Virus record (IMG/VR): IMGVR_UViG_3300026286_000004
Strand: one strand, 5' to 3'
Source of the DNA: a virus
Taxonomy: Duplodnaviria; Heunggongvirae; Uroviricota; Caudoviricetes
Length of the DNA: 25,350 bases
The notes under the pieces were generated by a model. It had not been told where the DNA came from. It saw only the letters and a program-made list of their open reading frames with translations, and did no database searches. Shown here piece after piece: positions 4,155 to 23,608 of the stretch. The stretch's first letter is position 1. Each line of letters starts with the position of its first letter. The translations under genes and the position numbers were made by a program.

Positions 4155-4405
4155 CACGCGAATGCCCAGTGTCCCAGCGCGTTGTGGGTCCTGAACGAAC
4201 TTTGAACGTGTCTGCCACGTAAGGCTTGCCCCGTCCCCAGCCCAAATCCCGGCAACTTTGAAGTGTTGAACGCCAGCACCCGCGAGGGTCAGGGCGTGAT
4301 CCCAAAGCTTGGCCTATCAGCGGCGCCAGCGTTGCGGTAGCCACCGCCGATCCACCACCCGAGCTGCTGCCCAGTGCGCGCTGCCGGATCTTCACGTAGG
4401 TCGCC

Positions 4406-4816: not shown

Positions 4817-4840
4817 GTCCTGGATGTGCGCGGGGAGGGT

Positions 4841-5356: not shown

Positions 5357-5363
5357 GCTCTTC

Positions 5364-5391
5364 CTTTGCCTCACAAGGTGATTCCGGCGGC
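5364..5391 (-). promoter_or_regulatory. Class A motif GCCGCC-N15-GGCAAAG, 7 nt before the ATG at 5356
   Basis: One mismatch to the four exact copies, with the same 15-nt spacer. Confidence 0.6.
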
Positions 5392-8300
5392 GGCCATGAT
5401 CGGCACCGGATCCTGCGGGACGTCATTGACCCGGATCTCGAAGTGCAGGTGGTTGCCCGAGGATGTCCCGGTCGTCCCCACGACCCCGATCTGCTGGCCG
5501 ACCGTGACGGTCTGCCCGGTCGTGACCATGACCCGGGACTGATGGCCGTAGTACATCTCCATCGAGTCGCCCACCTTGATCGACACGAGCAGGCCATACC
5601 CGCATCCGCAGTCGCCGGCGAACGAGACCGTCCCGGCCGCCGCAGCGAAGATCGGGGGAGTGCCACCATCGTTCGGGGCCATGTCGACACCCTTGTGATC
5701 GGTCGACCCGCCCGGCGTCGGCGACGGCCGCGGACCGAACGGGCTGGAGATGAAGTAGCTGCCCGCAGGCAACGGCAGCGCCGCGTCGCCGTTGATCGTC
5801 GCACCAGACCCGCCCGTCGACCACTGGGCGGCGTTCGCGGCCATCCCGGTCGCAGCGGAACTGATCGCCTCCGCCGACGGGTTCTGGCTCTGCCACCCGT
5901 TCGGCAGCTCGATCGCCATGACGCCGTACTCGACGGCCCACTCGAAGATGTTCTCCAGCGACCCGAGGCCGTGCGAGCCGTGCCCGCCGTCGATCGAACG
6001 GGTCTGCAACGTGATCGGGTGGTTGTTCGTCGTGATGTGCTCGTAGATCGCGAACGCGCCCGACTTCGTGTCGATCGTGTGCTCGTCCAGTCCGGTGTGC
6101 CCGAAACTGAACCGCGGACTGAGCGCGCTGATCTCGTCGATCCAGTCGAACGTCGCCGACGTGGAAACACCGCCGTCCAGGCTGAAGTACGGGTGCGCCC
6201 ACACCGTGATCGGTGTCGTCGGCCACGCCGCCAGCATCCCGGCGGCATCCGCCCGGACCGCGGCACCCCGATCCTCCTCGGTGAACCCAGCGTCCTGCAT
6301 GTTCTGCAGGTTCGTCTTGCCGTTGTCGGCTCGCTCGGATGAGAACAGCAGCATCCATTCGGCGGTCATCGGCGAGAACGCGCTGACGTTCACCTCGCCG
6401 ACCTGGGTGTACGAGTCATACTTCGCGCCGAGCGCCGTCATCATCGCCTGCCACGCCGACACGTAGTCCGGGTCGTACAGGTACGGCAGGTCGGAGTGCT
6501 TGTTCTCGTCATGGTCGAAGAACCGCGGCAGCGGGCGGCCGTGCGCGGACAGCTCTTTCGCCCACTGCGGGGCGTGGATACCCGGCCGGATCCGCAGCCG
6601 GAAGCGCATGTTGTGCGACGACGCGTACGTGATCGCCGCGTCGATCCGCGAGGTGTCGTAGACGCCCTGCTCCTTCTCGATCTGGTCCCAGTCGAGTTGC
6701 AGCACGAACCCTTGCAGCTCGTCGGTCCGGTCGCCGCCCTTGCCTTGCGACAGGTCGGTGCGCGCGAGCAGACCCGACAGGAACGGCTTGCCGATCCCGC
6801 AGGACGTCGAGCCGACATCGGTCGGGGTGCCGGTGCCACCCTCCGGGTTGACCGTGATGTGGACGTGGTCCATGTGGTTCGCGGTCACGCCGCCGCGGTC
6901 TTCCATCGGACGCCACTGCCCCACCGGCCAGCCGGCCTGCCAGTAGCGCTGGTACCAGATCATGTATTTGATCCCGTACGCGGACGCGTTCTCCTGCGCG
7001 TACTTCGCCAGCGCGTCACCGTTCGCCCGGTCCTCGAACACCATGAAGTCGGCGGCCAGACCGGACGGGTGGTCCGGGTACGGGTCGAACTCGCGCCAGC
7101 CGTAGATCGTCTCGATGCTGAACTTCGTGCCCAGATCGTCGGCCATGTACTGCGTCGGCGCCTGCACCGGGCCGATGTCGTAGCCGGCCCGCGGCGCGAA
7201 CGCCACGATCGGGGCGAACTTACCGCCGGACATCGCGAGCACCGTCCGGCCGGACGGCGGCGGCACCTTCCCGGTGATCTGCGCGACCAGGAGCGCCGCA
7301 TCCGGCTCCCATTTCCCGTACGCGTCCGGGAACGCCGAGCGCTGCACCGCCTGCGCGGCCTCCCCGAGCGGCATCGACTGCCAGTTCGTGATGTCGACCA
7401 GGCCCGGGTTCGACGTGTGGTCGGCCATCCCGTAGAACCCCTTCGACGACTTCACCGGGTCGAGGATCTCGTCCGGGCTACCCCAGCCGGTGCTCGGCCG
7501 CTGCTGGAACAACCCCAGGCTGTCCCGGTCGCCATACGTCAGGTTCCGCAACGTCGACTCCTGCAACGCCGTCATCAACGCGATGACCAGGCCCCGCTCC
7601 GGGATTCCCAGGCTCTGCCCGGTCTGGACGATGATGACGGCGTTGCCCATCTGCTCCGGGGTGATCTCGAAGCTCAGGTTGTCCGGGAGGGTGCCGGAGT
7701 ACGTGCTCGTGCACGGCACCGGACCGGCCGCCAGGCCGAACCGCCAGTGGATCGCCGTGTCCACGATCGTGTCAGCCCACGACGTCGACGCACCGGCCAA
7801 CGGCATCGCGGACAGAGCGCTGCGAAACGGGGCCCGCACGAGCGTCTCGGAGGCGTCCTCGTCGAACCAGACCAACTGGCCGGCCTCGAGCTTCCCGCCG
7901 ATCCCGATATCCGTCGAGGCCATCCACCGGTCCTGCTCACCGAGCAGATCACGCAGTTGCTCCGACACCCACCGGGTGGCCTTCTTCGGGTCGGCCGCAT
8001 CCTCTTCGGTGAACTCGTCGTCCAGCGCATCCTCGGTGATCTGATACGGACCGACCCCGCCCGTCCCGGACCGCTGCGTCAAGAACAGGGCGGCGACCAC
8101 GTGCCATGGCAGCCCGGCGTTGTACACCGGGTTCGACAGGATCGTGATCTCCTCCTCCGACAGCCCGGCGGTGACCGCCTGCTCGACCGATGCAACCTGC
8201 TGGTTTCCGGAGGTGCCGGTGATCCCGCTCGGGCTCATGAAGACGGAAAACAGCATCAGCAGCGGGACGAGCGTCATGACCAGGCCGGCCGCCACGAATC

Positions 8301-8469
8301 TGCGGAGCCGCTTCGACTTGACCGCGGACTTCCCGGCCGCGGCGATCCCACCGGCCAGGCCGCCTGCCGCGGCACCCTTAGCGATGCTCGTGACGGCAGC
8401 AGCAGCCTCTTCCCGGCCGGACGGTCCGTCGTCCGGGATCTCGAGGTTGTCGTTCGGCTGCTCGCTCAC
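5371..8469 (-). CDS. Membrane-anchored multi-domain cell-wall hydrolase: degenerate SLT-like, lytic-transglycosylase-like, M15-like, GH-A TIM-barrel-like and M23 peptidase domains (1032 aa)
   Basis: TM at aa 58-78; ALQES...DSLGLFQQRP..GWG; DHPSGLAADFM...NHMDHVHIT; LDWDQIEKEQGVYD...APQW; HKGVD...YGH...HLHFEIR (M23 HxxxD plus HxH). Confidence 0.85.
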   Translation of the reverse strand: MSEQPNDNLEIPDDGPSGREEAAAAVTSIAKGAAAGGLAGGIAAAGKSAVKSKRLRRFVAAGLVMTLVPLLMLFSVFMSPSGITGTSGNQQVASVEQAVTAGLSEEEITILSNPVYNAGLPWHVVAALFLTQRSGTGGVGPYQITEDALDDEFTEEDAADPKKATRWVSEQLRDLLGEQDRWMASTDIGIGGKLEAGQLVWFDEDASETLVRAPFRSALSAMPLAGASTSWADTIVDTAIHWRFGLAAGPVPCTSTYSGTLPDNLSFEITPEQMGNAVIIVQTGQSLGIPERGLVIALMTALQESTLRNLTYGDRDSLGLFQQRPSTGWGSPDEILDPVKSSKGFYGMADHTSNPGLVDITNWQSMPLGEAAQAVQRSAFPDAYGKWEPDAALLVAQITGKVPPPSGRTVLAMSGGKFAPIVAFAPRAGYDIGPVQAPTQYMADDLGTKFSIETIYGWREFDPYPDHPSGLAADFMVFEDRANGDALAKYAQENASAYGIKYMIWYQRYWQAGWPVGQWRPMEDRGGVTANHMDHVHITVNPEGGTGTPTDVGSTSCGIGKPFLSGLLARTDLSQGKGGDRTDELQGFVLQLDWDQIEKEQGVYDTSRIDAAITYASSHNMRFRLRIRPGIHAPQWAKELSAHGRPLPRFFDHDENKHSDLPYLYDPDYVSAWQAMMTALGAKYDSYTQVGEVNVSAFSPMTAEWMLLFSSERADNGKTNLQNMQDAGFTEEDRGAAVRADAAGMLAAWPTTPITVWAHPYFSLDGGVSTSATFDWIDEISALSPRFSFGHTGLDEHTIDTKSGAFAIYEHITTNNHPITLQTRSIDGGHGSHGLGSLENIFEWAVEYGVMAIELPNGWQSQNPSAEAISSAATGMAANAAQWSTGGSGATINGDAALPLPAGSYFISSPFGPRPSPTPGGSTDHKGVDMAPNDGGTPPIFAAAAGTVSFAGDCGCGYGLLVSIKVGDSMEMYYGHQSRVMVTTGQTVTVGQQIGVVGTTGTSSGNHLHFEIRVNDVPQDPVPIMAAAGITL

Positions 8470-8508
8470 ACCCTGATGTATGCGGCAGAAGCCCTACCGG
8501 AACCGGCG
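8466..8508 (-). promoter_or_regulatory. Class B motif CGCCGG-N15-TGCCGCATACAT-N6-GTG
   Basis: 22 bp at 8466-8487 are 20/22 identical to 9584-9605; the motif ends 6 nt before the hydrolase start codon. Confidence 0.65.
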
Positions 8509-8940
8509 CCCGGGCTTGCGGGAGACGTCCGGCGGGAAGTACCGCAGCCGGCGCCGGGCAACCCGCCACGTCGCATACCGGGACGGCATCCGCGCCGACT
8601 TGCGCAGATTGTGCGGGGCGCACGCCCACACCAGGTTGTCGTCGCTGGACGCCCCGCCGCGGGTGTGCGGGATCCAATGGTCGGCGTGCGCACCCGGGCG
8701 CCGGCACCGCCGTCCGAACGCTCCGGTGAACTCGCACTGGCCGCCAGCGAGCATGGACGCCGCGGACGACTGGAACGTCGTGAATGCCCGGATCGGATCT
8801 TTCGGGCTGCGCCGCTCCCGGATCATCTGGATCACCTGCCAGATGATCGTCGCCCCGGAGATGACGGCGACGACCATCCGTCCACGCCCGTCCAGGTGGT
8901 CCTGGGCCAGCTCCAGCCAGCGTTCCGGCTCTACCCGCAT
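8494..8940 (-). CDS. HNH-family endonuclease with an N-terminal hydrophobic segment (148 aa)
   Basis: GQCE...RC...HADHWIPHTRGGASSDDNLVWACAPHNLRK is a beta-beta-alpha HNH motif with Zn ligands. TM-like stretch MVVAVISGATIIWQVIQMI. Start set to the ATG overlapping the upstream stop. Confidence 0.8.
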   Translation of the reverse strand: MRVEPERWLELAQDHLDGRGRMVVAVISGATIIWQVIQMIRERRSPKDPIRAFTTFQSSAASMLAGGQCEFTGAFGRRCRRPGAHADHWIPHTRGGASSDDNLVWACAPHNLRKSARMPSRYATWRVARRRLRYFPPDVSRKPGRRFR

Positions 8941-9587
8941 TTCGACCCGGACGACGTCCACGACATGTGCGGGTCACCGCCGGAGTCGGTCACCGACAAC
9001 GTGTACGACCCGGCCGGGCCGGACACCGTCACGGACCGGCCACCGGCCCCGGACGCCGCACCGGTGATCGACGTCGAAACCGACCCCGACCCCGACCCGG
9101 ACACCGTCAGCGTGACCGGGCGGGAGCACGTCACGGTCTGACGGTACGTCTGCGGCTGCGCCGGGGGCTTCTTCGTCGTCGGCGGCGGGGTGTACGGCTT
9201 CGTCGTCGTCACCGGAGGCGGCGTGTACTGCTTGGTCGGAGGGGGTGTGTACTGCTTGGTCGTCGGCGGGGTGTACTCCTTCGTCGGACGGGACGTGGAC
9301 ACCGCTTTCGACGAGGACGAGGTCGCCTTCGGGGTGTAGGTCTTGGTGAGCGTGTTGATCCGGGTCGCCGTCACGGTCTCCGGGGTGATCGTCACCCGGG
9401 TCGTCGTCAGCGTTCCCGTCGGCGACGGGGTGGCTTGCAGCCGCTCGATCAGGTCCGGCGCGGCCTGAGCGGACAGCGCGAACAGCCCGACGAAGACGGC
9501 GATGCATGCGCCGATCACCGAGTTGCGATGCCCGAGCCACCAGCGGACCGTGTCCCACCGGCCCCGGGTCAGCCTGAACCTGTTCAC
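8931..9587 (-). CDS. Membrane-anchored Pro/Thr-rich surface protein (218 aa)
   Basis: TM VIGACIAVFVGLFALSAQA, TK(E/Q)YTPP repeats and a Ser/Gly/Thr-rich beta domain bracketed by two Cys. GTG start chosen from the class B motif spacing (in-frame ATG at 9593 is the alternative). Confidence 0.7.
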   Translation of the reverse strand: MNRFRLTRGRWDTVRWWLGHRNSVIGACIAVFVGLFALSAQAAPDLIERLQATPSPTGTLTTTRVTITPETVTATRINTLTKTYTPKATSSSSKAVSTSRPTKEYTPPTTKQYTPPPTKQYTPPPVTTTKPYTPPPTTKKPPAQPQTYRQTVTCSRPVTLTVSGSGSGSVSTSITGAASGAGGRSVTVSGPAGSYTLSVTDSGGDPHMSWTSSGSKCG

Positions 9588-9625
9588 ACCCATATGTATG
9601 CGGCAACAAACCGGAACCCCCGGCG
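9584..9625 (-). promoter_or_regulatory. Class B motif CGCCGG-N14-TGCCGCATACAT-N6-GTG
   Basis: Near-identical to the 8466-8487 copy; overlaps the ssb terminator stem. Confidence 0.65.
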
Positions 9626-9648
9626 ATTTCTCGCCGGGGGTTCCGGTT
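9609..9648 (-). terminator. Intrinsic terminator-like hairpin downstream of ssb
   Basis: Perfect 18-bp stem aaccggaacccccggcga / tcgccgggggttccggtt with a 4-nt loop, running into TTTGTT on the minus strand, about 90 nt after the ssb stop. Confidence 0.75.
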
Positions 9649-9738
9649 GACCTCTGCGCCGGAGCCTTCGGTCGAAACCTCTCAGAGGTTTCCGGGTGCC
9701 TTCGTATTAGCGGGCGTCCTTGCGGGCGCGCCACCAAA

Positions 9739-10212
9739 TCAGAAGTCGTTCGGGTCGCCAGCCGGAGCGGCTGCGGCCGGAGCCTGGGCCGGGGCGGCCT
9801 GCGTGGGCGCGGAAGCGGCCTGGCCGCTGTTGCCATTTCCCTCGTAGATCGCCTTGGTGAGCTGGGCGGTGACGAACCGCAGGGACGCGCCGACCTCCCA
9901 CGCGTTGACGGACATGCGTCCGATCTTCTTGGTCTCGCCGCCCTCGGCGACGACCTCCGTGGTGAAGCTGTTCAGCTCACCGACGATCATCACCTTGTTG
10001 CCCTTGCGCAGGGACGCCACGACGTTGCGGGCCAGGTATTCCTGGAAAACCGTCACGTCGACGTAGGTCGGGTCCTGCTTCTGCCCGTCACGGTCGGGCT
10101 TGTCGATCGCGATCGAGAACGTCGCGCGGAACTTCCCGCTGTTCTCGTTGATCCGCGACTGCGGGTCGGCGGTCAGGTTGCCGATGAGCTGGACGTAGTT
10201 GCCGTTCGACAT
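9739..10212 (-). CDS. ssb: Single-stranded DNA-binding protein (157 aa)
   Basis: VQLIGNLTADP...FSIA...VTVF...LARNVVASLRKGNKVMIVGEL...EVGASLRF, Ala/Pro linker and acidic tip DPNDF. AGGAAG SD before the ATG at 10212. Confidence 0.95.
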   Translation of the reverse strand: MSNGNYVQLIGNLTADPQSRINENSGKFRATFSIAIDKPDRDGQKQDPTYVDVTVFQEYLARNVVASLRKGNKVMIVGELNSFTTEVVAEGGETKKIGRMSVNAWEVGASLRFVTAQLTKAIYEGNGNSGQAASAPTQAAPAQAPAAAAPAGDPNDF

Positions 10213-10286
10213 GGAGATGTCGTCTCTTCCTGTGTGTGCGAGGCCGGGTCGTTTCCCGGCCGCAGGCTCTTTCGCCTGCACTACTC

Positions 10287-10314
10287 CTTTGCCGCTGACC
10301 CCCGGTTTCGCGGC
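10287..10314 (-). promoter_or_regulatory. Class A motif GCCGCG-N15-GGCAAAG upstream of ssb
   Basis: Exact copy in the dnaE-ssb gap, 74 nt before the likely ATG and 5 nt before an in-frame GTG at 10281. Confidence 0.7.
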
Positions 10315-10321
10315 GCGAGCA

Positions 10322-13300
10322 TCACGCGGCGAGAACGGGGCGGATCATCGCGACCGGGTCGCCGGCATCGTCCGCACCGACCAGGACAAGCGCCGGCCCG
10401 CCGCCGGCGTGCGGGAACGGGTCGGATGACTGGCCGTCATCCAGGATCAGTGCCCAGTCGAACGTCGGGTAGTGCCGGGTGATCTGGTCCAGCACGTTCC
10501 GCAGCTGGGAGAACGCCGGCAACCCTGGAGCGATCTTGACCGTGTACACCGCCGGTCCCGGCTCCGGTTCCGGTTCGGGATCCGCCCAGACATCTTCATC
10601 CGGCATGTCGTTGGGCACGGACTCCCAATATGGGTCCTCTTCGGACGCAGGCGTCGCCTCAACCTCAACTACAGGTTCAGAAGCCTGGCCGGACGCCGGC
10701 GGGTCCGGAACCAGGCTCAGGACCGGCTGCGCCGGCTCGGCCACCACCGGATCGGCGACCTCGGTGACCACCGGGCCGGCAGGCTTCAGTTCCGGGGCGT
10801 CCGGGATAGCCACCTCCCGCGGCAGGCTCCCGAGCGCGCAGATCGGGGTCGGGCGGCGAGGTCCGTCCCGCAGGTCGCCCGTCCAGATGTTCGAGATCCG
10901 CAACTCAGGGGTGACATCGCCCTCGTCGTCGCTGCCCCACGGCGCCGTCGTCACCCCGCTCACACCGATAATCTGACCCACGACCGGCTCGAGCCCGCTG
11001 TCCGTCAGGCGTTCCAGCACGTTGTTCCAGGCGATCCCCTCGATCCGGCCGGTCGCATCCTCGATCACGACCCGGGCATACCGGCCCTTGGTGTAGCTAC
11101 GGATGTTGACCGACACCACCTGTCCGACCACGGACACGCTCACCCCGGACGCCGCGGACACCCGGCCGATCGGTCCGGTCCGGGCGCCCGTGGCCGGGTT
11201 CACCCAGGCGTCCAGCTGGTCGGCCAGCAACGCCGTCGGCGGCGGCCCGAGCACCACCCCGAGCAGGCGGCGCTGACGCTCCGAGCGCTCGATGACACCC
11301 CATTCGGCGTCCGGGATCACGACATCGTCGCTGCCGGACGCGGCGCGGACCGCCATCACCTGACCCATCCGCGGCCCGAATCCGTCCATCGCGCCCGCCT
11401 CGATCAGCGCGATCACCGCAGACGTCGGCAGTTTCGACATCCCTTCGCCGCGCGGCACGTGCACGCGGTTCATCAGGTCGGCCAGGGAGGTGAACGGGCC
11501 GTTCTTGTCCCGCTCCACCACGATCCATTGCGCGTTGCCGGACACGCCCTTGACCTCGCCCAGCCCGAGACGGACCGTGCCGTCCGGGTAGGCCGCGGTC
11601 GACACCGCGCCGACGTTCACGTCCGGTGGGAGGACATCGACCCCTTCGGCGCGCAACGCTGCGATCGTGCCCTGCCGCTTGCCGGCCTTCGACTTGTCAG
11701 TCGGGACCACCGACAGCAGCGCCGCGCCGTACGGCCCCGGCCAGTTCGCCTTCAGCCAGGCGGTCATCCACGCCAGCTGGCCGTACGCCGCCGAGTGGCT
11801 GTTGTGCGAGACCATCCCGTTCGCGACGAAGTTGTGGTCGGTGCCGTCGGCCATCTCGAGGTCGAACGTCGGCATCGACCCGTCCCGTTCGATGCTCTCG
11901 ATCGGCACCAGCCGGGCGAGACCGTCGTCGGTGACGATCAGGTCGCCCACGGACAACTCGGACAGCTCCCGGTACCTCGGGACCGGGTCGCCGTCGACAC
12001 CGAGCCGGTCGGTCGGATCGACGCAAAGCCACCGGTGGTTGCCGGTGCACCGGGCGGTCCGGCCGTTCGCCAGCGTCATCCGGTACACCTCGGCGGTCCC
12101 GTTGTCGTGGACGGTCAGCAGCGCCTGGTTCGTGAAGGTGTTGCTCCGGTGGTCGAACGCGCGCAGCGTCTCCGGCAGGTCCGTGCCCGCCCCGGCCATC
12201 CCGAACAGTTCGGATATCGTCCACGGCGCGCCGTTCCCGTCGACCACCATCGTGTCGCCGGTCAGGCACCGGTTGAACAGGTAGGACGCGGACGCGGTGA
12301 ACGTGCGCCACAACTCATCCAGGGTCGCGGTCCGGAACGACACCTTCGCGCTGCCGTCGGAGCGGACCGACCGCTGGCCGCCGGAGAGGAACGTCTCGTA
12401 GAGGGCGTCCATCTCGGGCTTGATCTTCTTGCTGAACGCCTTCTGCAGCCGGAACTTCTCGTCCTTGCTGAAGTCGGCGACCACCTCCGCCAGCTGCATC
12501 AGCTGTTCCTGGTAGACGCAGTTGTGGACCACGACCCCTTCGGCGACGAAGTTGTGGTCACCGGGAACGGTCAGGTCGTACACACGGGCCGCGCCATCCG
12601 GTTTGACCGACAGGACGTGCCACCACTGGGCGGGGCTGTCTTCGTCGGCGTTCCGCAGCAACCGGACCGGGGAGGCGACCCGGCTCTCGGCTTTGAGGTC
12701 GCCCGCCTGCGTCCACCCCTGGCGGGTCAGCAGCAGGTGGTCGGCGGTGACACGGATGGAGCGGCCGGAGTCGAACGTGACCTTGACGACGCTCTTGATG
12801 CCGTTGTCGTGGACGTGGCTGACGGGGCTGAGCCGGTACTGCCCGTCGTCGCCGACGCTCTGGACCAGGTCCCCGGCCCTGATCTGCTCGATCGGTACAT
12901 ACCCGCCCCAGGTGGAGGAGTAGACCTGCTCGCCTTCCGCGACGCACGTCCCCATCGTGTTCCCGAGCACCGTGGCGATCTCGGCCTGCTCCGCCGGCAC
13001 AGGCGTGAAGATGCCGTAGTCGACCTTGGCGCCGTTCTTGCGGTGCGCGTACTCGTGGTGCATCCCGGCGCCCATCGGGCCCGGCCGGTAGAGCGCCACC
13101 AGCGCGGACAGGTCCGCGAGGCTGGTCGGCTTGACGGCCTTGCACAGCTCGGTCATCCCGGAACTGGAGAGCTGGAAGACGCCGGCGGTCTTGCCGGCGG
13201 CCAGCATCGCGTACGCCCGTGCCGCCCGCTCGTCGGACGGGTCGTGGGTGGCGTTGTCCGGGTCGATCTTCTCGCCGGTCAGCTCCTCGATCATCTCGAC

Positions 13301-15103
13301 GGCACGCTGGACCACGGTCAGGTCGTCGATCGCGAGGAAGTCGAACTTGACCAGGCCGAACTTCTCGATGTCCCGCCCGTCCCATTCGGTGACCGGGGGA
13401 GCCCCGGGAGCCTTGATCTGCTGCCGCATCGGGACCAGGTCGGTCAGCGGCTGGTCGCCGATGACGAACCCGCACGCGTGGATCCCGGACGACGAGGTGA
13501 CGCCCTCGATCGCCTGCGCATCCGCGACGAGCGCGGCGACGGCGGGATCTTCTTGCATCATCGCGCGCAGCGGCGCACCCAACGGCTCGTCCTCGTCGAG
13601 CAGGACGTGGAAGGATGAGTTCGCGGCAGTGCCCATGTTGGGGACCAGCCGGGCGACGGTGTCGGCAAGCTCGTCCCGTCCGGTGACCCGGCCGATGTCG
13701 CGGATCGCCTTCTTCGCCCACGACATGCCGGGGGCACCGATCCGGGCGACGAAGTTCGGCCCGTACTTCTGCGCCGCATATTCGTACATCTCGTCGCGCC
13801 GGTCCGACTGGAAGTCGATGTCGACGTCCGGCATGGACGGACGGTCCGGGTTCAGGAACCGTTCGAACAGCAACCCGTTCCCGAGCGGCTCGACGTTGGT
13901 GACCTCGAGCGCGTACAGGCAGATGGATCCCGGACCGGAACCGCGGCCCGGCCCGACCCGGATGCCGCGCCGGCGGGCTTCGGAGACGATGTCGTGGACG
14001 GCCAGCAGGTAGCCGGCGAACCCGGCGCCGACGATCGTGTCCATCTCGAGGCGGGCCTGGTTCTTGACCTGCTCGGTCAGGACCGGCCCGTACCGGGCGA
14101 TCAGCCCGTCCTTGACCAGCTTGTACAGCCAGCTCTGCTCGGTGTGTCCGTCCGGGACGGGCACATGCGGCAGCCGGAAGCCGACCGCGGGGATGACGTT
14201 CTTCTCGATCCGGGAAGCGATCAGCAGGCTGTTGGAGACGGCGCGTTCCGTGCCCGGCTGGGTGTCGAACAGGGCGTGCATCTCCGCGGCGGTGCGGAGG
14301 TGGTAGCCGGTCCCGTTGAACCGGAATCGCTTCTCGTCCGTCACCAGGGTCGTCTTGCTGCCCTTGGATGACCCGATCGCGAGCCACGCGTCATGGGCGG
14401 GGGCGTCGCATGCGCCTGCGTAGTGGGAGTCGTTCGTGGCAACCAGGGGCAGGTTGAATTCGCGGGCCAGGTCGACCAGGCCCGGTATGACCTTCCGTTC
14501 CGCGGGGATGTCGTGGTCCATCACCTCGACGAACAGGTTCGCTTCGCCGAAGATGTCCCGGAGCCGGGCCAGGTTCGTCCGCGCGGTGTCCATGTCGCCG
14601 CGGATCAGCGGTCCGGCGACCGGCCCGCCGAGGCACCCGGAGCCGACGATCAGGCCGGCGGAGTGCGCGGCGAGCAGGTCGTAGTCCCAGCGCGGCTTGT
14701 AGAAGAAGTTCGCCGCGTCCCAGGACGCATTGTGTCCGGCGATCAGGTTTCGCCATCCGGTCGGGTTCGCGGCCAGCAGCGTCAGATGCTCGTAGCGCTT
14801 CTCCTTGGTTGCGCCGTCACTGTCGCCGCCGCCGTCGAAGTCGTCTTCGGCGGGCACCCGGACCACGTTGCGCTCGGTCCGCGGGCCGATCGACAGGTAC
14901 GCCTCGAGCCCGAGGATCGGGGTCAGGCCGGCCGCGAGAGCGGACTTGTTCACATCGAAGTGGGCGCCGCAATCGCCGTGGTCGGTGATCGTGACCGCTC
15001 GCTGGCCGTCGGCGAGGGCGGCCTCGATCTGCTGGCTGGTACGGGTCAGGCCGTCGAGTTCGGAGCGCTGGCCGTGGACGTGCAGGTTGACGAAGTCGCT
15101 CAC
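10322..15103 (-). CDS. dnaE: DNA polymerase III alpha subunit (DnaE-type family C), precursor 1593 aa with two inteins
   Basis: PHP motifs (LHVH, TDHG, GLEAY, HLTLLA, TNDSHY), GRGSG, catalytic PDVDIDF, GIHACG, KFDFL, YRPGP, YQEQ, FN(R)SH, HhH and OB fold. GGAGG SD and GTGA overlap with the upstream gene. Confidence 0.97.
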   Translation of the reverse strand: MSDFVNLHVHGQRSELDGLTRTSQQIEAALADGQRAVTITDHGDCGAHFDVNKSALAAGLTPILGLEAYLSIGPRTERNVVRVPAEDDFDGGGDSDGATKEKRYEHLTLLAANPTGWRNLIAGHNASWDAANFFYKPRWDYDLLAAHSAGLIVGSGCLGGPVAGPLIRGDMDTARTNLARLRDIFGEANLFVEVMDHDIPAERKVIPGLVDLAREFNLPLVATNDSHYAGACDAPAHDAWLAIGSSKGSKTTLVTDEKRFRFNGTGYHLRTAAEMHALFDTQPGTERAVSNSLLIASRIEKNVIPAVGFRLPHVPVPDGHTEQSWLYKLVKDGLIARYGPVLTEQVKNQARLEMDTIVGAGFAGYLLAVHDIVSEARRRGIRVGPGRGSGPGSICLYALEVTNVEPLGNGLLFERFLNPDRPSMPDVDIDFQSDRRDEMYEYAAQKYGPNFVARIGAPGMSWAKKAIRDIGRVTGRDELADTVARLVPNMGTAANSSFHVLLDEDEPLGAPLRAMMQEDPAVAALVADAQAIEGVTSSSGIHACGFVIGDQPLTDLVPMRQQIKAPGAPPVTEWDGRDIEKFGLVKFDFLAIDDLTVVQRAVEMIEELTGEKIDPDNATHDPSDERAARAYAMLAAGKTAGVFQLSSSGMTELCKAVKPTSLADLSALVALYRPGPMGAGMHHEYAHRKNGAKVDYGIFTPVPAEQAEIATVLGNTMGTCVAEGEQVYSSTWGGYVPIEQIRAGDLVQSVGDDGQYRLSPVSHVHDNGIKSVVKVTFDSGRSIRVTADHLLLTRQGWTQAGDLKAESRVASPVRLLRNADEDSPAQWWHVLSVKPDGAARVYDLTVPGDHNFVAEGVVVHNCVYQEQLMQLAEVVADFSKDEKFRLQKAFSKKIKPEMDALYETFLSGGQRSVRSDGSAKVSFRTATLDELWRTFTASASYLFNRCLTGDTMVVDGNGAPWTISELFGMAGAGTDLPETLRAFDHRSNTFTNQALLTVHDNGTAEVYRMTLANGRTARCTGNHRWLCVDPTDRLGVDGDPVPRYRELSELSVGDLIVTDDGLARLVPIESIERDGSMPTFDLEMADGTDHNFVANGMVSHNSHSAAYGQLAWMTAWLKANWPGPYGAALLSVVPTDKSKAGKRQGTIAALRAEGVDVLPPDVNVGAVSTAAYPDGTVRLGLGEVKGVSGNAQWIVVERDKNGPFTSLADLMNRVHVPRGEGMSKLPTSAVIALIEAGAMDGFGPRMGQVMAVRAASGSDDVVIPDAEWGVIERSERQRRLLGVVLGPPPTALLADQLDAWVNPATGARTGPIGRVSAASGVSVSVVGQVVSVNIRSYTKGRYARVVIEDATGRIEGIAWNNVLERLTDSGLEPVVGQIIGVSGVTTAPWGSDDEGDVTPELRISNIWTGDLRDGPRRPTPICALGSLPREVAIPDAPELKPAGPVVTEVADPVVAEPAQPVLSLVPDPPASGQASEPVVEVEATPASEEDPYWESVPNDMPDEDVWADPEPEPEPGPAVYTVKIAPGLPAFSQLRNVLDQITRHYPTFDWALILDDGQSSDPFPHAGGGPALVLVGADDAGDPVAMIRPVLAA
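11801..12268 (-). other. Mini-intein 2 in DnaE (156 aa, no homing endonuclease)
   Basis: LFNR|CLTGDTMV...CTGNHRWL...TFDLEMADGTDHNFVANGMVSHN|SHSAAY: Cys1, TxxH, terminal HN, +1 Ser. Confidence 0.93.
12521..12946 (-). other. Mini-intein 1 in DnaE (142 aa, no homing endonuclease)
   Basis: MGT|CVAEGEQV...VTADHLLLT...VYDLTVPGDHNFVAEGVVVHN|CVYQEQ: Cys1, block B TxxH, blocks F and G, +1 Cys. Confidence 0.93.
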
Positions 15104-15663
15104 GCGACACCTCCGGTGAGAACGTCGAGGATGTCGGCGAAGCTCGGGCCGCGGTGGATCCGGTATGCCGCGACCCACGCTTCGGTGGTGCCGATGTAGA
15201 AGTCGGGTGTCCCGGCACGCCGGACCAATGCGATCCGCCGGTTCCGGGGGATTCCGCCCCGGTCGTTGCGGACGTGCTCGACGGCCTTCGACGGGATACC
15301 GAAGACGGGCCGGGCGTCATCCGGGACCGGAGCCGGCCAGGTGGTTGCGGCCATCAGCCAGTTGACGCTGGTCGCCTTGGCGTTCATCACCGGCACCATG
15401 CCCAGGTGCAGTGCGACGCCGGCGTTCGCCTGCTGCCGGAAGGCGCCGTCAACGGCCTGCCACAGGGCCCGGTTGGTGTCGTTGAGCGCCTTGACCTGGA
15501 CGGCGACGTCGGGGAAGACGTGAAGGTCGCCCTTGTCCTCCTTGCGTCCGGCGCCGAGGAGGCGTTCGGGCCGGTCGACGGTCAGGCCGGGGCACCACGC
15601 AGCCAGGTGGGCGACGGCTTTGCGCTCGAACCGGTCGCCCTTGTTTTTGGGTGCGTTCGCCAT
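15100..15663 (-). CDS. Hjc-like Holliday junction resolvase, PD-(D/E)XK nuclease (187 aa)
   Basis: KNKGDRFERK...GAGRKEDKGDL...VQVK is the KG..xE / GD / QxK pattern of archaeal- and actinophage-type resolvases. Translationally coupled to dnaE. Confidence 0.75.
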   Translation of the reverse strand: MANAPKNKGDRFERKAVAHLAAWCPGLTVDRPERLLGAGRKEDKGDLHVFPDVAVQVKALNDTNRALWQAVDGAFRQQANAGVALHLGMVPVMNAKATSVNWLMAATTWPAPVPDDARPVFGIPSKAVEHVRNDRGGIPRNRRIALVRRAGTPDFYIGTTEAWVAAYRIHRGPSFADILDVLTGGVA

Positions 15664-15670
15664 GTAAGCC

Positions 15671-15698
15671 CTTTGCCGGCGGGGGCCGGACTCGCGGC
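15671..15698 (-). promoter_or_regulatory. Class A motif GCCGCG-N15-GGCAAAG, 7 nt before the resolvase ATG
   Basis: Exact copy heading the resolvase-dnaE unit. Confidence 0.75.
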
Positions 15699-15743
15699 GC
15701 GGGCTCGAAGTTTGCGTGCAGTTTCGGAAGATGTGCCACGCTC

Positions 15744-15799
15744 ATACCCGTCGGGCGCGCGTACGCGCGCGCGTGTGCCCGCGCGCGCCCGACGGGTAT
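15744..15799. repeat. 18-bp perfect inverted repeat enclosing an alternating purine-pyrimidine tract
   Basis: atacccgtcgggcgcgcg (15744-15761) / cgcgcgcccgacgggtat (15782-15799); 15755-15777 is an unbroken 23-nt RY alternation. Confidence 0.85.
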
Positions 15800-15877
15800 T
15801 GGAGGTCCGACTCTCCGCGGAACGTGCGCAAACTGGAGCCCCTGGAGGCGCTGTCCGGGCCAGAACGTGGTGGGAAC

Positions 15878-16245
15878 GGCCCGATCTTGACTGCAGAATC
15901 GCGATCTTGACTACGCTGTAGTCAAGACGTTTTTGCAGGTCAGACCCCGTTTTGGGGCCTCTTGACTGCATTGACCACATTCACACAGTAGTTATATAGG
16001 GAGGGACTGCGTTACACACAGTTTTGGTGTGATGTAAGACCCCTCTCCCCATATATATATATATGTTTGTAGTCAATGTAGTCAATTGATGATAAAAGGG
16101 CCTCTGACCTGCGGAAACGTCTTGACTACAGCGTAGTCAATTTCGCGATTCTGCAGTCAAGATCGGGCCCCAGACCCTCCCAGACCCCCTCTAAACCCCC
16201 TCTGACCTGCGAAAACGTCATTGACCTCGTGTAGTCAAGATCGGG
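15878..16245. other. Dyad-symmetric repeat complex with AT-rich core; candidate replication origin
   Basis: 67-bp inverted arms 15878-15944 / 16103-16169 (63/67), inner inverted pairs about the same centre, (AT)7 at 16051-16064, 12 TTGAC/GTCAA units, and a partial third arm at 16201-16245. The structure is certain; the origin function is inferred. Confidence 0.6.
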
Positions 16246-16386
16246 GATCCACGCACAGACCTCCTCGCAGGTCCTCCCGGGCGCCAGCCGGCCCGGCACA
16301 CGCCGCTCGAGGCCCTCCGAACCCCGCTCCCGGGGTAACCGGCTGGACCCGCCCGCACACATGGCTAGCGTGGACGAACAGAGCGC

Positions 16387-16414
16387 GCCGCGTCGGCGAC
16401 CTCTTCCGGCAAAG
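16387..16414 (+). promoter_or_regulatory. Class A motif GCCGCG-N15-GGCAAAG, 8 nt before the GTG at 16423
   Basis: Exact copy heading the rightward gene run. Confidence 0.75.
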
Positions 16415-16422
16415 GGACCGAT

Positions 16423-18183
16423 GTGCAGACCTTCATCGCAGTCGTCAACTTGCCCGGGCTGGTCCCCGCCCTCCGGTCAGCCGGCTACCAGCTGGCGAGC
16501 GAGGACACCCAGCCCCGGGCGGTCAACGCATCCCTGCGTTCCGCCCCCACCGACGCCAAGGTCGTCGTCATCGCGGCTCACCCGAACGGCGACGCGAAGA
16601 TGCGCGACTGGATCGCGGTGCAATCCGAGTCGCGCCGCCCGGTTCTGCTGCTGGCCGCCGACCCCGATGCACAGCCGCTCCCGAAGACCCGGGTGGTCCA
16701 CCTGCCGGCGACCTTCGACGACATCATGGCGAGCTTCAACGCTCCGGCCCGCGGCGACGATGTCGGGTCCTCGGTCCTCGAGCCGGACGGCACCCTGACC
16801 TCCCCGGGATCCGAGCCCATCACGGATGACGGCGACATCTGGGGTGACGACTTCGGGTTCTCCGCCGATCCCAGCCCGGACGCGGACGACGATGCCGACC
16901 CACCAGCCCCTGATGACGACGACCTCGACTCGTCCGACGACCCACCGGTCCCGGGCGACGACGACGACGAAGAAGAAGACCTCGACGACCTCGACCCGTC
17001 GGTCCCCGATGACGACGACCTCGATCCGTCCGACGATCCGCAGGTCCCTGATGACGATCTCGACTATCTCGACGATCTCGACCCGCCGGTCCCCGATGAC
17101 GACGACGACGATCCCGGTTACCGCCCGCCGCCGGTCCCGAGCTTCGGGATGGACGACACCCCGCCCCCTGCTCCGGCCGAGGCTGTCGCCCCGGAGCGGC
17201 CCGGTGGGTTGATCGACCCCGACGAGACCGAGGAGATCCTCGGCGTCTTCGACCGCAGACCCGACACCATGCTGGTCCGGTCCGCGACCCTCGGCGGTCA
17301 GTCCGACATCATCGTCTGCTGGGCAGCGAAGGGTGGCGTCGGGAAGACCTCGTTCGCGATCGCTCTCGCCGAACGGGCAGCCGTTATCGGCGGCTTCAAG
17401 CGGATCGTGCTGGTCGATGCGAACCGCGGTCAGGACGGAGTCCGCAAGGTGCTGCGCCTGACCGGTGCGGTCGACCGGCTGCCGTCGATGTACAGCGCGG
17501 CGATCACCGGCGACCCGGAGCAGGCCATCTCCACCCCGGCCCAGATCGTCCAGCTCCGGCATCAGAACCTGCCGCCGGTGCACTTCGCGACCGCTCTTGC
17601 CCCGCGAGCCGGCCAGGCCGACCCGGAGGTCGTCTCCGATCAGGTGTACGGCGCGGTGATCGACTGGGCCCGCCGCAACGCCGACCTGGTCATCGTCGAC
17701 ACACAGATCAAGGAATCGCATGACACGTCCGGGCTGTTCGACCGGCTTCTCGAGCCGATCCTGACGGCTGCGGCCGGGTCGTTCTCGGTGGCGATGGCGG
17801 ACACCTCCGTCGAAGGCGTGCTGAACCTCATCGAACGGCTGAAGGCGTTCGGTGCCGGCGACATCCCGCCCGAGCGGACCCTCGCGGTGATCAACCGGGT
17901 CGAGGCGAATTCACCGCTCGACATCCCGGCGACCGTGCGCTACCTCGAGGGCAAGATGCACTTCGTTGGATCGGTCATGCAATCCCCGGATGTCCTGAAC
18001 GCCTTCTCGACCGGGCGTATCCCGCACGACGACCCGGCCCTGGCCCGCGTCTTGGACGACATCCTCTTCAAGGTGACCGGGGCCTCCCAGTTCGACTCCG
18101 ACCGTCACTGCGACCGGTATGCCGACCCATCGTCCCTGGCGAAGGGCCGATCGCGGTGGTCCCGGTTTGGAAGGAGGGGCTGA
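16423..18183 (+). CDS. MinD/ParA-family ATPase with N-terminal receiver-like domain and acidic repeat linker (CpaE/TadZ-like architecture, 586 aa)
   Basis: Deviant Walker A AKGGVGKT, LVDAN, Walker B LVIVDT and VINRV. Asp/Pro-rich repeats at about aa 140-250. Confidence 0.8.
   Translation: MQTFIAVVNLPGLVPALRSAGYQLASEDTQPRAVNASLRSAPTDAKVVVIAAHPNGDAKMRDWIAVQSESRRPVLLLAADPDAQPLPKTRVVHLPATFDDIMASFNAPARGDDVGSSVLEPDGTLTSPGSEPITDDGDIWGDDFGFSADPSPDADDDADPPAPDDDDLDSSDDPPVPGDDDDEEEDLDDLDPSVPDDDDLDPSDDPQVPDDDLDYLDDLDPPVPDDDDDDPGYRPPPVPSFGMDDTPPPAPAEAVAPERPGGLIDPDETEEILGVFDRRPDTMLVRSATLGGQSDIIVCWAAKGGVGKTSFAIALAERAAVIGGFKRIVLVDANRGQDGVRKVLRLTGAVDRLPSMYSAAITGDPEQAISTPAQIVQLRHQNLPPVHFATALAPRAGQADPEVVSDQVYGAVIDWARRNADLVIVDTQIKESHDTSGLFDRLLEPILTAAAGSFSVAMADTSVEGVLNLIERLKAFGAGDIPPERTLAVINRVEANSPLDIPATVRYLEGKMHFVGSVMQSPDVLNAFSTGRIPHDDPALARVLDDILFKVTGASQFDSDRHCDRYADPSSLAKGRSRWSRFGRRG
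16884..17115 (+). repeat. Imperfect coding tandem repeats encoding PDDDDLD.SDDP.VP / LDDLDP.V
   Basis: e.g. cctgatgacgacgacctcgactcgtccgacgacccaccggtcccg vs cccgatgacgacgacctcgatccgtccgacgatccgcaggtccct. Confidence 0.8.
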
Positions 18184-18851
18184 TGGGTTTCGACGACTGG
18201 CCTCCGAAGCCCGCGCCGGAACGCGTCGACGGGTCCGACCCTTCGGACGTGATCTTCGGTGGTCATCACGGCAGTTCCGTGGTCACTCCGGAACGACCCG
18301 ACGACGAGCCGGACCTCACCGACGACGACGACGAGCCGGATCTGTTCATGGCACCGGGACCGAAGCCGGCGGAGCCGAGCCTCTCGGACGACCTCTTCGG
18401 GCCGGCGCCCGCGCCGGCGGCACCGGCCAGGCCGGGTCCGACCGTGGACGCGGTGTCCACGTCCCGCGCGCGCACTCCGCGCCTGCCGAGGGCCCGCCGG
18501 TCAATGCCGAAGCTGTCGAAGCCGTCCCTGGGCGCTGCCGGCGCCGGGCTTTCTTCGGCCGGAATGCAGGACGTGGTGCGGATCGTTGCTGCCGTCGCGG
18601 TCGCCGGCCTGGTGTGGCTGGTGGTCGACCGGGCCGCGGACGTCACCGGTGTCGGCCAGTTCATCGTCACGGCGACGGCGGCTGCCGTCACGATGGCGGT
18701 CATGTACGCGCGCGGCCCGAAGCTGGGGCTGGCGGTGGCCGCCGTGTGCGCCGTGGTTGCCGTGGTGTCCGCGCATTGGTGGTGGGCCGCGGCAGCGGTC
18801 CTGATGGTGCTGGGAGGAATCCTCACAGCGGGGTGGAGGAAGGATCCATGA
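18183..18851 (+). CDS. Membrane protein with Pro/acidic N-terminus and 3-4 C-terminal TM helices (222 aa)
   Basis: GGAGG SD, TGATG overlap with the ATPase gene, and hydrophobic stretches in the C-terminal 100 aa. Confidence 0.75.
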   Translation: MGFDDWPPKPAPERVDGSDPSDVIFGGHHGSSVVTPERPDDEPDLTDDDDEPDLFMAPGPKPAEPSLSDDLFGPAPAPAAPARPGPTVDAVSTSRARTPRLPRARRSMPKLSKPSLGAAGAGLSSAGMQDVVRIVAAVAVAGLVWLVVDRAADVTGVGQFIVTATAAAVTMAVMYARGPKLGLAVAAVCAVVAVVSAHWWWAAAAVLMVLGGILTAGWRKDP

Positions 18852-19804
18852 CGCTGATGTCGCCTCGTGACCGGCTGCGGACCTGGTGTTCGCTGCTGGA
18901 CCGGATCGTTGTCGGGCGGGCCGCCGCGGCTGCTCTCGACGAGGGCCGTGATCTCGAGCCCGGGTTGCTGTTCATCCTCCCGACGTGGCTTTGGGTCGAG
19001 CCCGGTATCGACGTCGGACGCAAGGGTGTCGCCGACGACGGCTCCTTGCTGCCGATGCCGATCCGGGTCAGCTCGCCCGGATCGCCCGTCCAGGTGCTCT
19101 CCGACCCGTCCGACCTGGCGTTCACCGCGGCCGGCCTGGGCATCTCCACGGCCGGTGTCGTCACCGTGCGTGCCGGTTACTCCGACGCCTGCCATCCGGC
19201 GCATGTCGCCGACCAGGACATCTTCTCCGTCCGGATGCGCACCCCCGCCGAGCTGCGGGTCGAGCTGCGCAGGCTGGACGTCGACGGGCACAACGCTTGG
19301 TGCGAGGCGCTGATGTGGCCCGAGGAGCAGGTGCGCACCGCCATCGAGAAGGCGCACACGTTCCTCGCGCATGACGTCGCGAAAATGCACGGCGGCACCC
19401 CGACCCGGCTGATCGACCGGACCGCGGTCGAGGAAATCCTGACGTCGATGACGATCGGTTCCCTTGACGCGACCAAGCCGTCTGCGCTGGCGCGCATCAT
19501 CGAGCGGTCGCTGCTGCCGCTGACGTTCCTGAAGGTCGATCCGCTGTACTACCTGGAGCAGTCCCTGCGCCGCGATGCGCATGTGGCGTTGCGTCAGCAC
19601 ATGGGTGACCCGGAGTCCGGCCCCCGGATCCGCAAGTCTGCTCTCGAGGCCGGCGGCGTCGATGCCGACCCGGACGAGATCCTCGCGTGGCACAACAGGA
19701 AGTACCCCTTGGACAACCTCGGGATGGGCCGGCTCATGGCTGCACTGTCGGTGGCCCCCACGGTCACCGCCCGGGCAACAGGGCTGCAGTCGTGGGCGTC
19801 GTAG
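18848..19804 (+). CDS. Hypothetical protein; C-terminal helical region weakly sigma-factor region 2-3-like (318 aa)
   Basis: ATGA overlap and GGAGG SD. FLKVDPLYYLEQSLRRDAHVALRQHMGDPESGPRIRK...DPDEIL. The CDS is solid; the function is speculative. Confidence 0.65.
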   Translation: MTLMSPRDRLRTWCSLLDRIVVGRAAAAALDEGRDLEPGLLFILPTWLWVEPGIDVGRKGVADDGSLLPMPIRVSSPGSPVQVLSDPSDLAFTAAGLGISTAGVVTVRAGYSDACHPAHVADQDIFSVRMRTPAELRVELRRLDVDGHNAWCEALMWPEEQVRTAIEKAHTFLAHDVAKMHGGTPTRLIDRTAVEEILTSMTIGSLDATKPSALARIIERSLLPLTFLKVDPLYYLEQSLRRDAHVALRQHMGDPESGPRIRKSALEAGGVDADPDEILAWHNRKYPLDNLGMGRLMAALSVAPTVTARATGLQSWAS

Positions 19805-20223
19805 CACCGAGCGTCGGTGCACATACGTCGGCCGCCGGGGTCGCCGGACGGCTGAGCAAGGACGCTGTCAGAGCACGGTGTTTGACTGCTGTGACACAGG
19901 GAAGGTCGTCGATCTTCGATGTGATTCTGGAGGCCGCGGACACGAATGAGCGCCGGGCCCCGTTGCGGTTGATCAGGTTGTGGATGTTGTTGGAAGCGCA
20001 GGCCGGCTGGGGTGAGGCCCGCACCGGTGTCGTCATGGACCGGCTGGCCCGGTTCGCGGGTGTGCCGAACGATGTCCCGGTCCGGTCGTTGACGATCGGG
20101 TGGCTGCTGGACAACCGGTCCAAGCACCGGTTGGTCGCGTTCGCGGATGCTCTCGGCGACCGGGCCGTGCCGTGGCCGGGGTTCCCGTACGCGCCGGTAC
20201 CGGATGGTGTGTCGTGGACCTGA
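19792..20223 (+). CDS. Actinobacterial IHF (mIHF/sIHF)-like nucleoid-associated protein (about 143 aa; start uncertain)
   Basis: VTQGRSSIFDVILEAA...LRLIRLWMLLEAQAGWGEARTGVVMDRL follows the mIHF H2TH pattern (G..l.dVl..a...l.k+.v..LLEA.p..G..+a..+M..l), judged by eye. Confidence 0.55.
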   Translation: MGVVAPSVGAHTSAAGVAGRLSKDAVRARCLTAVTQGRSSIFDVILEAADTNERRAPLRLIRLWMLLEAQAGWGEARTGVVMDRLARFAGVPNDVPVRSLTIGWLLDNRSKHRLVAFADALGDRAVPWPGFPYAPVPDGVSWT

Positions 20224-21032
20224 CCTGGGAGGGTGTGGAGTCGTTTATCGGAGGCCGGACGGTCCGTTCCGACGCTCCCGTCCTGAACGACTTCCTGCGG
20301 CAGCAACCGGTGCGCCGGCTGGTCGATGTCACGGTGCGGACGCTGTGCAAGCGCAACGGGATCAGTTTCGCCCGGTACGGCGACGACTTCACCGCCGAGG
20401 TGAACGCGATCATCTTCTTGATCCTGACGAACGAGCAGTGGTCGGACCGGGCACACCTGCTCTCGGATTTCCCGCGTGGGTTGTTCCAGCTGTCGCGGAA
20501 CAAGTTCGCCTCGATCACGGAGTCCGCGGCGTGGATCGGGTCGTCCGGGATGTCCACGCAGGTGCGCCGGCGCCGGGCGCTCGGGATGCACCGGGCCCGG
20601 ATGATCAAGGACTTGGAGCGGGAACCGTCGAACCGTGAGCTGATCGACTCCTACAACGAGGCGATCCGGGCGAGCCGCAAGGACGCCGCCCGGCAGGGCA
20701 TGATCGCCACCGAAGGCGACCTGGCCCCGCTGGAGCCGGCATCTTTGGACGTGTCGGCCGGCCGGGAGGCGGCCAGCGACGACGTCTACCCGTTGCTCAC
20801 CCCGCAGGCGGGGCCGCTGGCCGAGGAGATCATCCGCCGGTCCGCCATGGAGGACCCGCTGCTCGGCATCGTGGCCCGGGCGTGGCTGGGCACCTATCAG
20901 GACGAGGTGTTCGCGACGTCCGCGGCGATCGCGGCAGAGCTGGGGATCGACCTCGACGACGTCATCGAGGCGCAGCGCGCGATCCAGGCGGTCACCGTCC
21001 TGGTGCTTCGGGACTGGGGCATGCCGGAGTAG
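20214..21032 (+). CDS. Divergent sigma-70-like (FliA/WhiG-like) protein (about 272 aa)
   Basis: SAAWIGSS...RRRRAL...IKDLEREPSNRELID resembles sigma regions 2.4-3.0 (DW.PRS...L..ELGR.PT..E). C-terminal HTH TSAAIAAELGIDLDDV resembles region 4. The CDS is solid; the sigma call is moderate. Confidence 0.55.
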   Translation: MDLTWEGVESFIGGRTVRSDAPVLNDFLRQQPVRRLVDVTVRTLCKRNGISFARYGDDFTAEVNAIIFLILTNEQWSDRAHLLSDFPRGLFQLSRNKFASITESAAWIGSSGMSTQVRRRRALGMHRARMIKDLEREPSNRELIDSYNEAIRASRKDAARQGMIATEGDLAPLEPASLDVSAGREAASDDVYPLLTPQAGPLAEEIIRRSAMEDPLLGIVARAWLGTYQDEVFATSAAIAAELGIDLDDVIEAQRAIQAVTVLVLRDWGMPE

Positions 21033-21039
21033 CTTTCCC

Positions 21040-21067
21040 GCCGCGAAACCGGGGTCGGGCGGCAAAG
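21040..21067 (+). promoter_or_regulatory. Class A motif GCCGCG-N15-GGCAAAG, 7 nt before the ATG at 21075
   Basis: Exact copy in the 42-bp intergenic gap; its spacer (aaaccggggtcgggc) resembles that of the ssb copy (aaaccgggggtcagc). Confidence 0.75.
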
Positions 21068-21074
21068 AGATCAT

Positions 21075-23570: not shown

Positions 23571-23608
23571 CCCATTCCAACAACCCGATTCCCGCAGGAG
23601 CAATTCAC

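Follow-up and report, generated by a model that had tools for sequence, protein, structure and literature searches.

A two-box, promoter-like signal in front of replication and nucleotide-supply genes on an uncultured actinobacterial mobile element

The class A motif and its copies along the element

A two-part DNA signal, referred to here as class A, precedes genes on the 25,350-nucleotide IMG/VR virus record IMGVR_UViG_3300026286_000004 (this whole stretch is termed the window) and on further DNA of the same mobile element. Its full form is CGCCG(C/T/G)(G/C), a non-conserved spacer of 15 nucleotides (nt), and (C)GGCAAAG(A/G)G. The sequence evidence points to an element-specific promoter class of the sigma-70-family type, private to one lineage of actinobacterial conjugative, megaplasmid-like elements and mostly leaderless; we consider this probable, at roughly 70%. 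What was observed directly is the pattern itself, where it sits, how it recurs, and that a relative conserves it. Seven indirect lines of evidence favour the promoter reading, namely the statistics, the placement and geometry of the copies, their independence from the start codon, the contrast with true Shine-Dalgarno (SD) sites, the coherence of the regulon, and conservation.

A preliminary description of the window had listed five sites of the form GCCGCG-N15-GGCAAAG, and all five were recovered, position and strand included: four are exact, one has a single mismatch, and the spacer between the boxes is 15 nt in each. Its chance estimate for the exact copies (∼0.005) was of the right order of magnitude. 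In 100 dinucleotide shuffles of the window, 0.09 matches to the pattern were expected, compared with the five observed, and no shuffle reached five. The heptamer GGCAAAG occurs five times on the two strands of the window, each time as part of a class A site, and an unbiased count ranks it first among the 7-mers found 4–9 nt before long open reading frames (ORFs).

The five copies had been described as lying in front of five genes, which holds for four of them as start-adjacent sites, whereas the copy upstream of SSB is separated from its gene by a leader. The gap of 7–8 nt given for the four start-adjacent copies was confirmed (7 nt at three, 8 nt at one). The copy at 16386–16414 (+), consisting of C-GCCGCG, 15 nt, and GGCAAAG, lies 8 nt before the GTG of a ParA-like gene of 586 amino acids (aa; 16423–18183) that heads a rightward gene array. 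The copy at 15671–15699 (-) heads a leftward array and lies 7 nt before the ATG of a 187-aa RusA-like resolvase gene (15100–15663), after which comes the DnaE gene (10322–15103), with a GGAGG site of its own. At 21039–21067 (+), a copy that begins 8 nt past the stop codon of a sigma-like gene precedes, by 7 nt, the ATG of an 831-aa PD-(D/E)XK nuclease gene (21075–23570). The mismatched copy, with GCCGCC as its upstream box, is at 5364–5392 (-), 7 nt before the ATG of a 171-aa gene (4841–5356); its upstream box and part of its spacer fall within the 3′ end of an M23 hydrolase gene, and the TGA stop of that gene is in the spacer. The fifth copy (10287–10315, -) is upstream of SSB, for which the probable start is the ATG at 10212. 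The products that follow the five copies are thus a 171-aa protein of no assigned family, SSB, the RusA-like resolvase and then an intein-bearing DnaE, the ParA-like ATPase, and an intein-bearing PD-(D/E)XK nuclease. Two of the copies had been said to diverge beside a candidate origin, and they do face outward across a 690-bp intergenic region (15700–16385) that contains an origin-like, 102-nt inverted repeat around a TA-rich core.

The window belongs to an uncultured, high-GC element that occurs in nearly identical form on many metagenome contigs and on one 161-kb contig of a metagenome-assembled genome. A phage collection gave no match to the whole window or to the origin region, and a plasmid collection matched the window only through an IS256 copy and another transposase. 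The IS256-family transposase gene (2815–4011, -) lies on the left side of the window, where the GC content is lower, and its DNA is ∼77% identical to copies on Rhodococcus and Mycolicibacterium plasmids.

Walking along the element gave 75.6 kb of non-redundant DNA with 15 occurrences of GGCAAAG. Thirteen of these have GCCGNN exactly 15 nt upstream, preceded in every case by C, which extends the motif to CGCCG-N17-GGCAAAG; from base composition, ∼0.04 such matches would be expected in 75.6 kb (calculated by hand). These 13 copies all sit before genes in the sense orientation and are spread over more than 60 kb, while the two occurrences that lack the upstream box are intragenic, with no start codon nearby. 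In an alignment of the 13 copies, the spacer columns carry little information, and the two conserved blocks keep a fixed distance throughout. The ATG or GTG of a long ORF (seven ATG, four GTG) follows 11 of the copies, at 7 nt in ten cases and at 8 nt in one; the other two, upstream of SSB and of a class II ribonucleotide reductase (RNR), have leaders of ∼70–80 nt. Besides RNR, the copies found rightward of the window precede genes for ThyA (followed by a DHFR-domain gene), a DinG-like helicase, a YAcAr/SLOG protein, a DnaQ-like RNase_T exonuclease, and two genes of unassigned function. These seven copies, found by walking, lie on the adjacent stretch of the same genome, where the signal termed class GGCAAAGAG proved to be the same as class A. 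Three of the copies share a spacer that starts with AAACCG(G/C)GG (window 10294–10308, -, and 21046–21060, +; L164:19535–19549), which could mark a sub-class or an operator inside the spacer.

The association with gene starts also appears where gene calls or flanking DNA differ. Two genes that had been called from other starts have an in-frame GTG exactly 7 nt past the box (L163:15577 and L164:19570). An element variant whose left arm differs has an independent copy (GCCGCG-N15-GGCAAAG-N7-ATG) before an unrelated 983-aa gene. As a control, viral contigs were scanned for CGCCGCG-N15-GGCAAAG, each contributing a single match; only 4 of 116 unrelated occurrences have a start codon at +7 or +8 that opens at least 60 codons. 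The variant contigs (L001, L003, L159, and L160) are 99.98% identical to the window to the right of a breakpoint at 15882, within the left arm of the origin-like inverted repeat, and wholly different to the left of it, where a 251-aa gene, the 983-aa gene, and a methyltransferase gene replace the RusA, DnaE, SSB, and hydrolase genes.

Promoter-like geometry and the competing explanations

When the first base of the start codon is taken as +1, GCCGCG occupies positions -35 to -30 and GGCAAAG positions -14 to -8. The downstream element then consists of GG at -14/-13 and a hexamer, CAAAGR, at -12 to -7 with A at -11, and 17 nt separate the two hexamers. This layout corresponds to the canonical geometry of sigma-70-family promoters, and would place the start of transcription on the start codon. 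A pyrimidine at -1 together with a purine at +1 is found at 11 of 11 start-adjacent copies, compared with 40 of 63 other genes (Fisher p 0.014). The start codons themselves are supported by the encoded proteins: ThyA certainly starts 7 nt past the box, as its first residue aligns with that of Escherichia coli ThyA, and the RusA, YAcAr, and RNase_T domains begin no more than 10 residues from the proposed starts. Binding by an RNA polymerase holoenzyme, the position of the transcription start, and the identity of the factor that reads class A are inferred.

A scan for sigma-70 consensus promoters returned none in window positions 4300–24200, the divergent region at 15700–16385 included. Promoters must lie in this 690-bp region, across which two class A copies face outward. 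Leaderless mRNAs with AUG and GUG starts are common in Actinobacteria, making up ∼33% in Corynebacterium glutamicum, and in that organism the TANNNT -10 hexamer of leaderless sigma A promoters stands a few nt before a start codon that coincides with the transcription start site (PMC3890552). At 11 of the 13 class A copies, RNA polymerase would likewise begin on the A or G of the start codon and yield a leaderless mRNA, and at SSB and RNR the same promoter would feed a leader of ∼70–80 nt with its own ribosome-binding site. The units marked in this manner are coherent (RusA with DnaE, SSB, the ParA-like protein, the nuclease, RNR, ThyA with DHFR, the DinG-like helicase, and the DnaQ-like exonuclease), and through class A, replication and nucleotide supply are probably timed or co-ordinated independently of the transfer genes, which have other box classes. 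The reader would be an alternative sigma factor, for which the element's own 272-aa sigma-like protein is possible and not favoured.

The preliminary description had favoured a promoter-like, two-box signal over a plain SD site, and the present results agree with it on several grounds: the fixed spacing and placement before genes, two copies that lie far from start codons, further copies on the element and in a distant relative, the lack of RNA structure, and canonical SD sequences in operon-internal genes. A ribosome-binding or translation-enhancer site of unusual form, GGCAAAG(A/G)G, acting in polycistronic mRNAs with the upstream box being incidental, is in our estimation very unlikely. It would account for the pairing of AAAGG and AAAGAGG with the 3′ end of 16S rRNA and for the several copies that occur in same-strand arrays directly past the preceding stop codon. 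It leaves unexplained the invariant GGC, as well as the CGCCG at a fixed 17 nt; the earlier argument that an SD site does not explain the upstream box and constant spacer was borne out in this respect. The class A spacing is also far more rigid than the 4–12 nt of SD sites (PMC3890552), and 16S 3′-end pairing at about that distance from the start is not seen at every gene that carries the motif. Anti-SD duplexes at class A genes, which have only AAAG(A/G)G, are weak to moderate (-2.5 to -8.9 kcal/mol), whereas the genes internal to the arrays (the 222-aa, 318-aa, and 166-aa genes and DnaE) have GGAGG or AGGAG 5–8 nt from the start. In the related locus L169, AAAG is followed by AAC or ACA and not by an SD-like run of G.

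The two leadered copies bear on this question: with leaders of ∼70–80 nt at SSB and RNR, the class A signal does not act as a site for ribosome binding. Start codons close to the box at RNR open only 3–5 codons, and the gene starts 82 nt downstream. At SSB, the copy is 5 nt from a GTG, which is probably not the real start: read from this GTG, the protein reaches its Pfam SSB domain at residue 28, GC at third positions (GC3) is ∼65% over the 23 added codons (counted by hand) compared with 86% for the stop-to-stop frame that holds the gene, and in the metagenome the gene was called from the ATG at 10212. A 96-nt piece (10205–10300, -) that includes the 74 nt from box to ATG (10213–10286, -) folds into two adjacent GC-rich hairpins (z -3.4) and belongs to no Rfam family; the 74-nt stretch may be a stabilising or regulatory 5′ leader. 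Just downstream of SSB, a perfect palindrome with a 17-bp stem is followed by TTTGTT (9609–9648, -); it looks like an intrinsic terminator, the 3′ arm of which supplies the CGCCGG box of the next class B site.

A role for the motif as an RNA or DNA structure (a hairpin, terminator, processing site, or an iteron or centromere beside the candidate origin) is the least probable of the alternatives. The GCCG and CGGC at the ends of the motif are able to pair, and two copies flank the origin-like inverted repeat and the ParA-like gene. As a hairpin the motif was rejected: six 61-nt motif regions folded no better than shuffled sequences (z -0.08 to +0.32), their structures differed, and no run of T follows the motif. 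Rfam gave no match in the window, L162, or L164. Copies that are spread over tens of kilobases, always in the sense orientation and at a fixed distance from start codons, are furthermore unlike an iteron or parS arrangement. Another explanation, that the two boxes are not sigma contacts and form the site of a dedicated transcription factor (an activator or repressor) that overlaps the promoters, appears unlikely, yet it draws on several features of the copies: the box centres are about two helical turns apart, the AAACCG(G/C)GG of three spacers is a possible operator, and part of the class B sites also have CGCCG, as would be expected of a common activator site. The boxes are, however, asymmetric and always in the orientation of the gene, and their geometry is exactly that of -35 and -10 elements. 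With only 7 nt between the box and the start codon, no separate downstream -10 element fits, and the spacer contains no TANNNT.

Several observations weigh against a sigma-type promoter class. As the preliminary description had pointed out, the -10-like box is unlike TANNNT; it is CAAAGR at -12 to -7, without a T at -7 and without the hexamer of actinobacterial housekeeping promoters. To our knowledge, it fits no described sigma consensus. AAAG(A/G)G is partly complementary to the anti-SD sequence and, on read-through transcripts, may secondarily bind ribosomes. GGCAAAG is absent from gene starts in most relatives with the sigma family of the element, and L167, the closest relative by its helicase (59% identical), has no class A copy.

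The sigma-like protein, other box classes, and relatives

Upstream of the nuclease gene, the window encodes a 272-aa protein (20214–21032, +) that is a candidate reader of one of the promoter classes of the element. The profile of its family is colinear with FliA (E 9e-4) and also aligns with region 3 of SigA, and members of the family match the Pfam models Sigma70_r3 (10 of 65), r4, r4_2, and r2. An AlphaFold (AF2) model of the protein has a pLDDT of 92, and the best 50 Foldseek matches and the 50 VIA-align entries listed were all sigma factors or sigma-containing RNA polymerase complexes, with Z up to 9.7 (8.1 for region 4 alone) and Foldseek E-values of only ∼1e-2. The sigma-2, sigma-3, and sigma-4 domains are present in this order. 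By profile and predicted structure, the protein is a remote, divergent member of the sigma-70 family. Upstream of the operon formed by a small-protein gene and the sigma gene, the sequence TTGACT (window 19882–19887, +) is conserved at ∼1052–1057 of L165, where the sigma protein has 41% identity; early expression of the sigma may depend on this hexamer as a host-type -35 box, and no TANNNT is found at the right spacing.

The preliminary description implied a link between class A and this protein, which the distribution among relatives does not support. Relatives of the ParA-like gene occur in genomes of Micrococcales, Propionibacteriales, and other Actinomycetota, and a metagenome scan with the ParA-like alignment gave one weak locus. 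In 22 of 33 loci (L010–L042), and in L165, the sigma family is kept ∼2–2.7 kb downstream of the ParA-like gene. Nearly all ParA-like-bearing relatives have the sigma family and class-B-type boxes, and none has class A. Start-associated GGCAAAG was absent from 32 genome loci with a ParA-like gene (30–45% identity) and from L165 and L166 (sigma 39–41% identical), and class A is for this reason not general in the wider family. Several of the loci L010–L042 and L165–L167 instead show CGCATAG-, GTACACATC-, or CGCACAC-type boxes 5–9 nt before starts, which resemble the class B box TGCCGCATACAT of the window. In L167, the class-B-like GTACACATC is exactly 6 nt before a start codon in 10 of 11 occurrences.

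Class A itself is conserved in the L169/L170/L171 lineage, in which the helicase is 48% and the nuclease 33–37% identical to those of the element. There, GGCAAAG-N7-start occurs at three genes, including the orthologous nuclease gene, in DNA that otherwise cannot be aligned; the upstream box is CGCC(G/A) and the spacing, at 16 nt, is 1 nt shorter. In L168, GGCAAAG-N6-GTG precedes a methyltransferase gene, as in L169, but without a good upstream box. In the L169 lineage, which has class A, the parts that were fetched contained no member of the sigma family. Because the sigma-bearing relatives have class-B-type boxes and no class A, the 272-aa sigma pairs better, by co-occurrence, with class B (CGCATA-type) than with class A. 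A second member of the sigma family was found neither in the ∼76 kb of the element that was read nor in the fetched parts of L167–L171, and nothing sigma-like emerged from Atlas look-ups of two proteins of 166 aa and 184 aa. The reader of class A could be another protein of the element, an alternative sigma factor of the host, or the 272-aa sigma together with a co-factor.

Class B boxes (TGCCGCATACAT or TGCCGCATCAGT) occur in the window at 8476–8508 (-), 9594–9625 (-), and 24361–24392 (+); the genes that start 0–6 nt further on are that for the M23 hydrolase, one of 220 aa, and the first of a VirB4-containing array. All three sites have CGCCGG 14–15 nt upstream, the same upstream core as class A, and of the looser class-B-like sites elsewhere on the element only about half share the CGCCG box. 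A third abundant start-proximal class, GTAAC...ACCGGnnTCATC-N6-ATG, was seen in L162–L164, the element DNA rightward of the window, for example before a DNA ligase gene, and an analogous CTGCGCTCAnn-N6-start class was seen at five genes of L169. One doubtful, more far-reaching reading is that of a self-contained modular code, in which class A, before replication and nucleotide genes, and some of class B, before transfer and wall genes, have CGCCG in common and differ only in the downstream box. If true, a single element-encoded reader of the -35 box (sigma-4 of the divergent sigma, or an appropriator-like factor) would be combined with two -10 readers. Switching between replication and transfer would then be independent of host sigma factors, and large actinobacterial conjugative elements would have conserved the code, with drift.

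Relation to known promoter systems and significance

Class A resembles the leaderless sigma A promoters of Actinobacteria in that its last conserved base is 6–8 nt before the ATG or GTG, which leaves no space for a leader or an SD site, and in the pyrimidine at -1 and purine at +1. It differs in that the -10 element is (C)GGCAAAG(R)G instead of TANNNT, the -35 element is a strongly conserved CGCCG instead of a weak ttgnca, and only one mobile-element lineage, and in it only a functional subset of genes, has the class; AUG or GUG does stand at the expected transcription start, and the TANNNT hexamer is absent. Among alternative sigma factors, those of group 3 (FliA/WhiG) recognize the consensus TAAA-N15-GCCGATAA, and extracytoplasmic function (ECF) factors are exemplified by E. 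coli sigma-E (GGAACTT-N16-TCAAA). Class A shares with these promoters two short, specific boxes, a rigid spacer, and a regulon, and its CAAA core resembles the TCAAA of sigma-E. Compared with these consensus sequences, however, its 13 copies are without AAC at -35 and without CGT or GCCGATAA at -10.

Stage-specific promoters read with phage-encoded sigma-like factors are established in Bacillus phage SPO1 (gp28 and gp33/34) and in T4, where gp55 reads the late promoter TATAAATA. The present element is similar in that it is mobile, has private promoter classes that split its genes into modules, and encodes a divergent sigma-family protein. Unlike these lytic phages, it is a conjugative, plasmid-like element, its class A signal has two boxes, unlike the T4 late promoter, and the pairing of a sigma factor with a promoter class is a candidate one. 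No description of class A was found in literature on the box sequence and on sigma-dependent leaderless promoters of actinobacterial conjugative elements. Class A extends known biology, namely alternative-sigma-type and leaderless promoters, and is not a new principle or mechanism. New here are the C that invariably precedes GCCG and lengthens the upstream box to CGCCG, the leaders at RNR and SSB, the content of the regulon, the conservation in a relative, and the argument from co-occurrence that the sigma of the element goes better with class B.

If class A is a promoter, transcription units on a large, uncultured actinobacterial mobile element, and the true starts of its genes, could be located from sequence alone; such starts would replace at least two that gene callers had set at other positions, plus one in a relative. 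It would also provide compact, leaderless promoter parts for high-GC hosts. The genes for replication and nucleotide supply would form a regulon of their own, distinct from the transfer genes. In combination with at least two further box classes and the divergent sigma-family protein of the element, class A suggests a phage-like transcriptional programming in a conjugative element.

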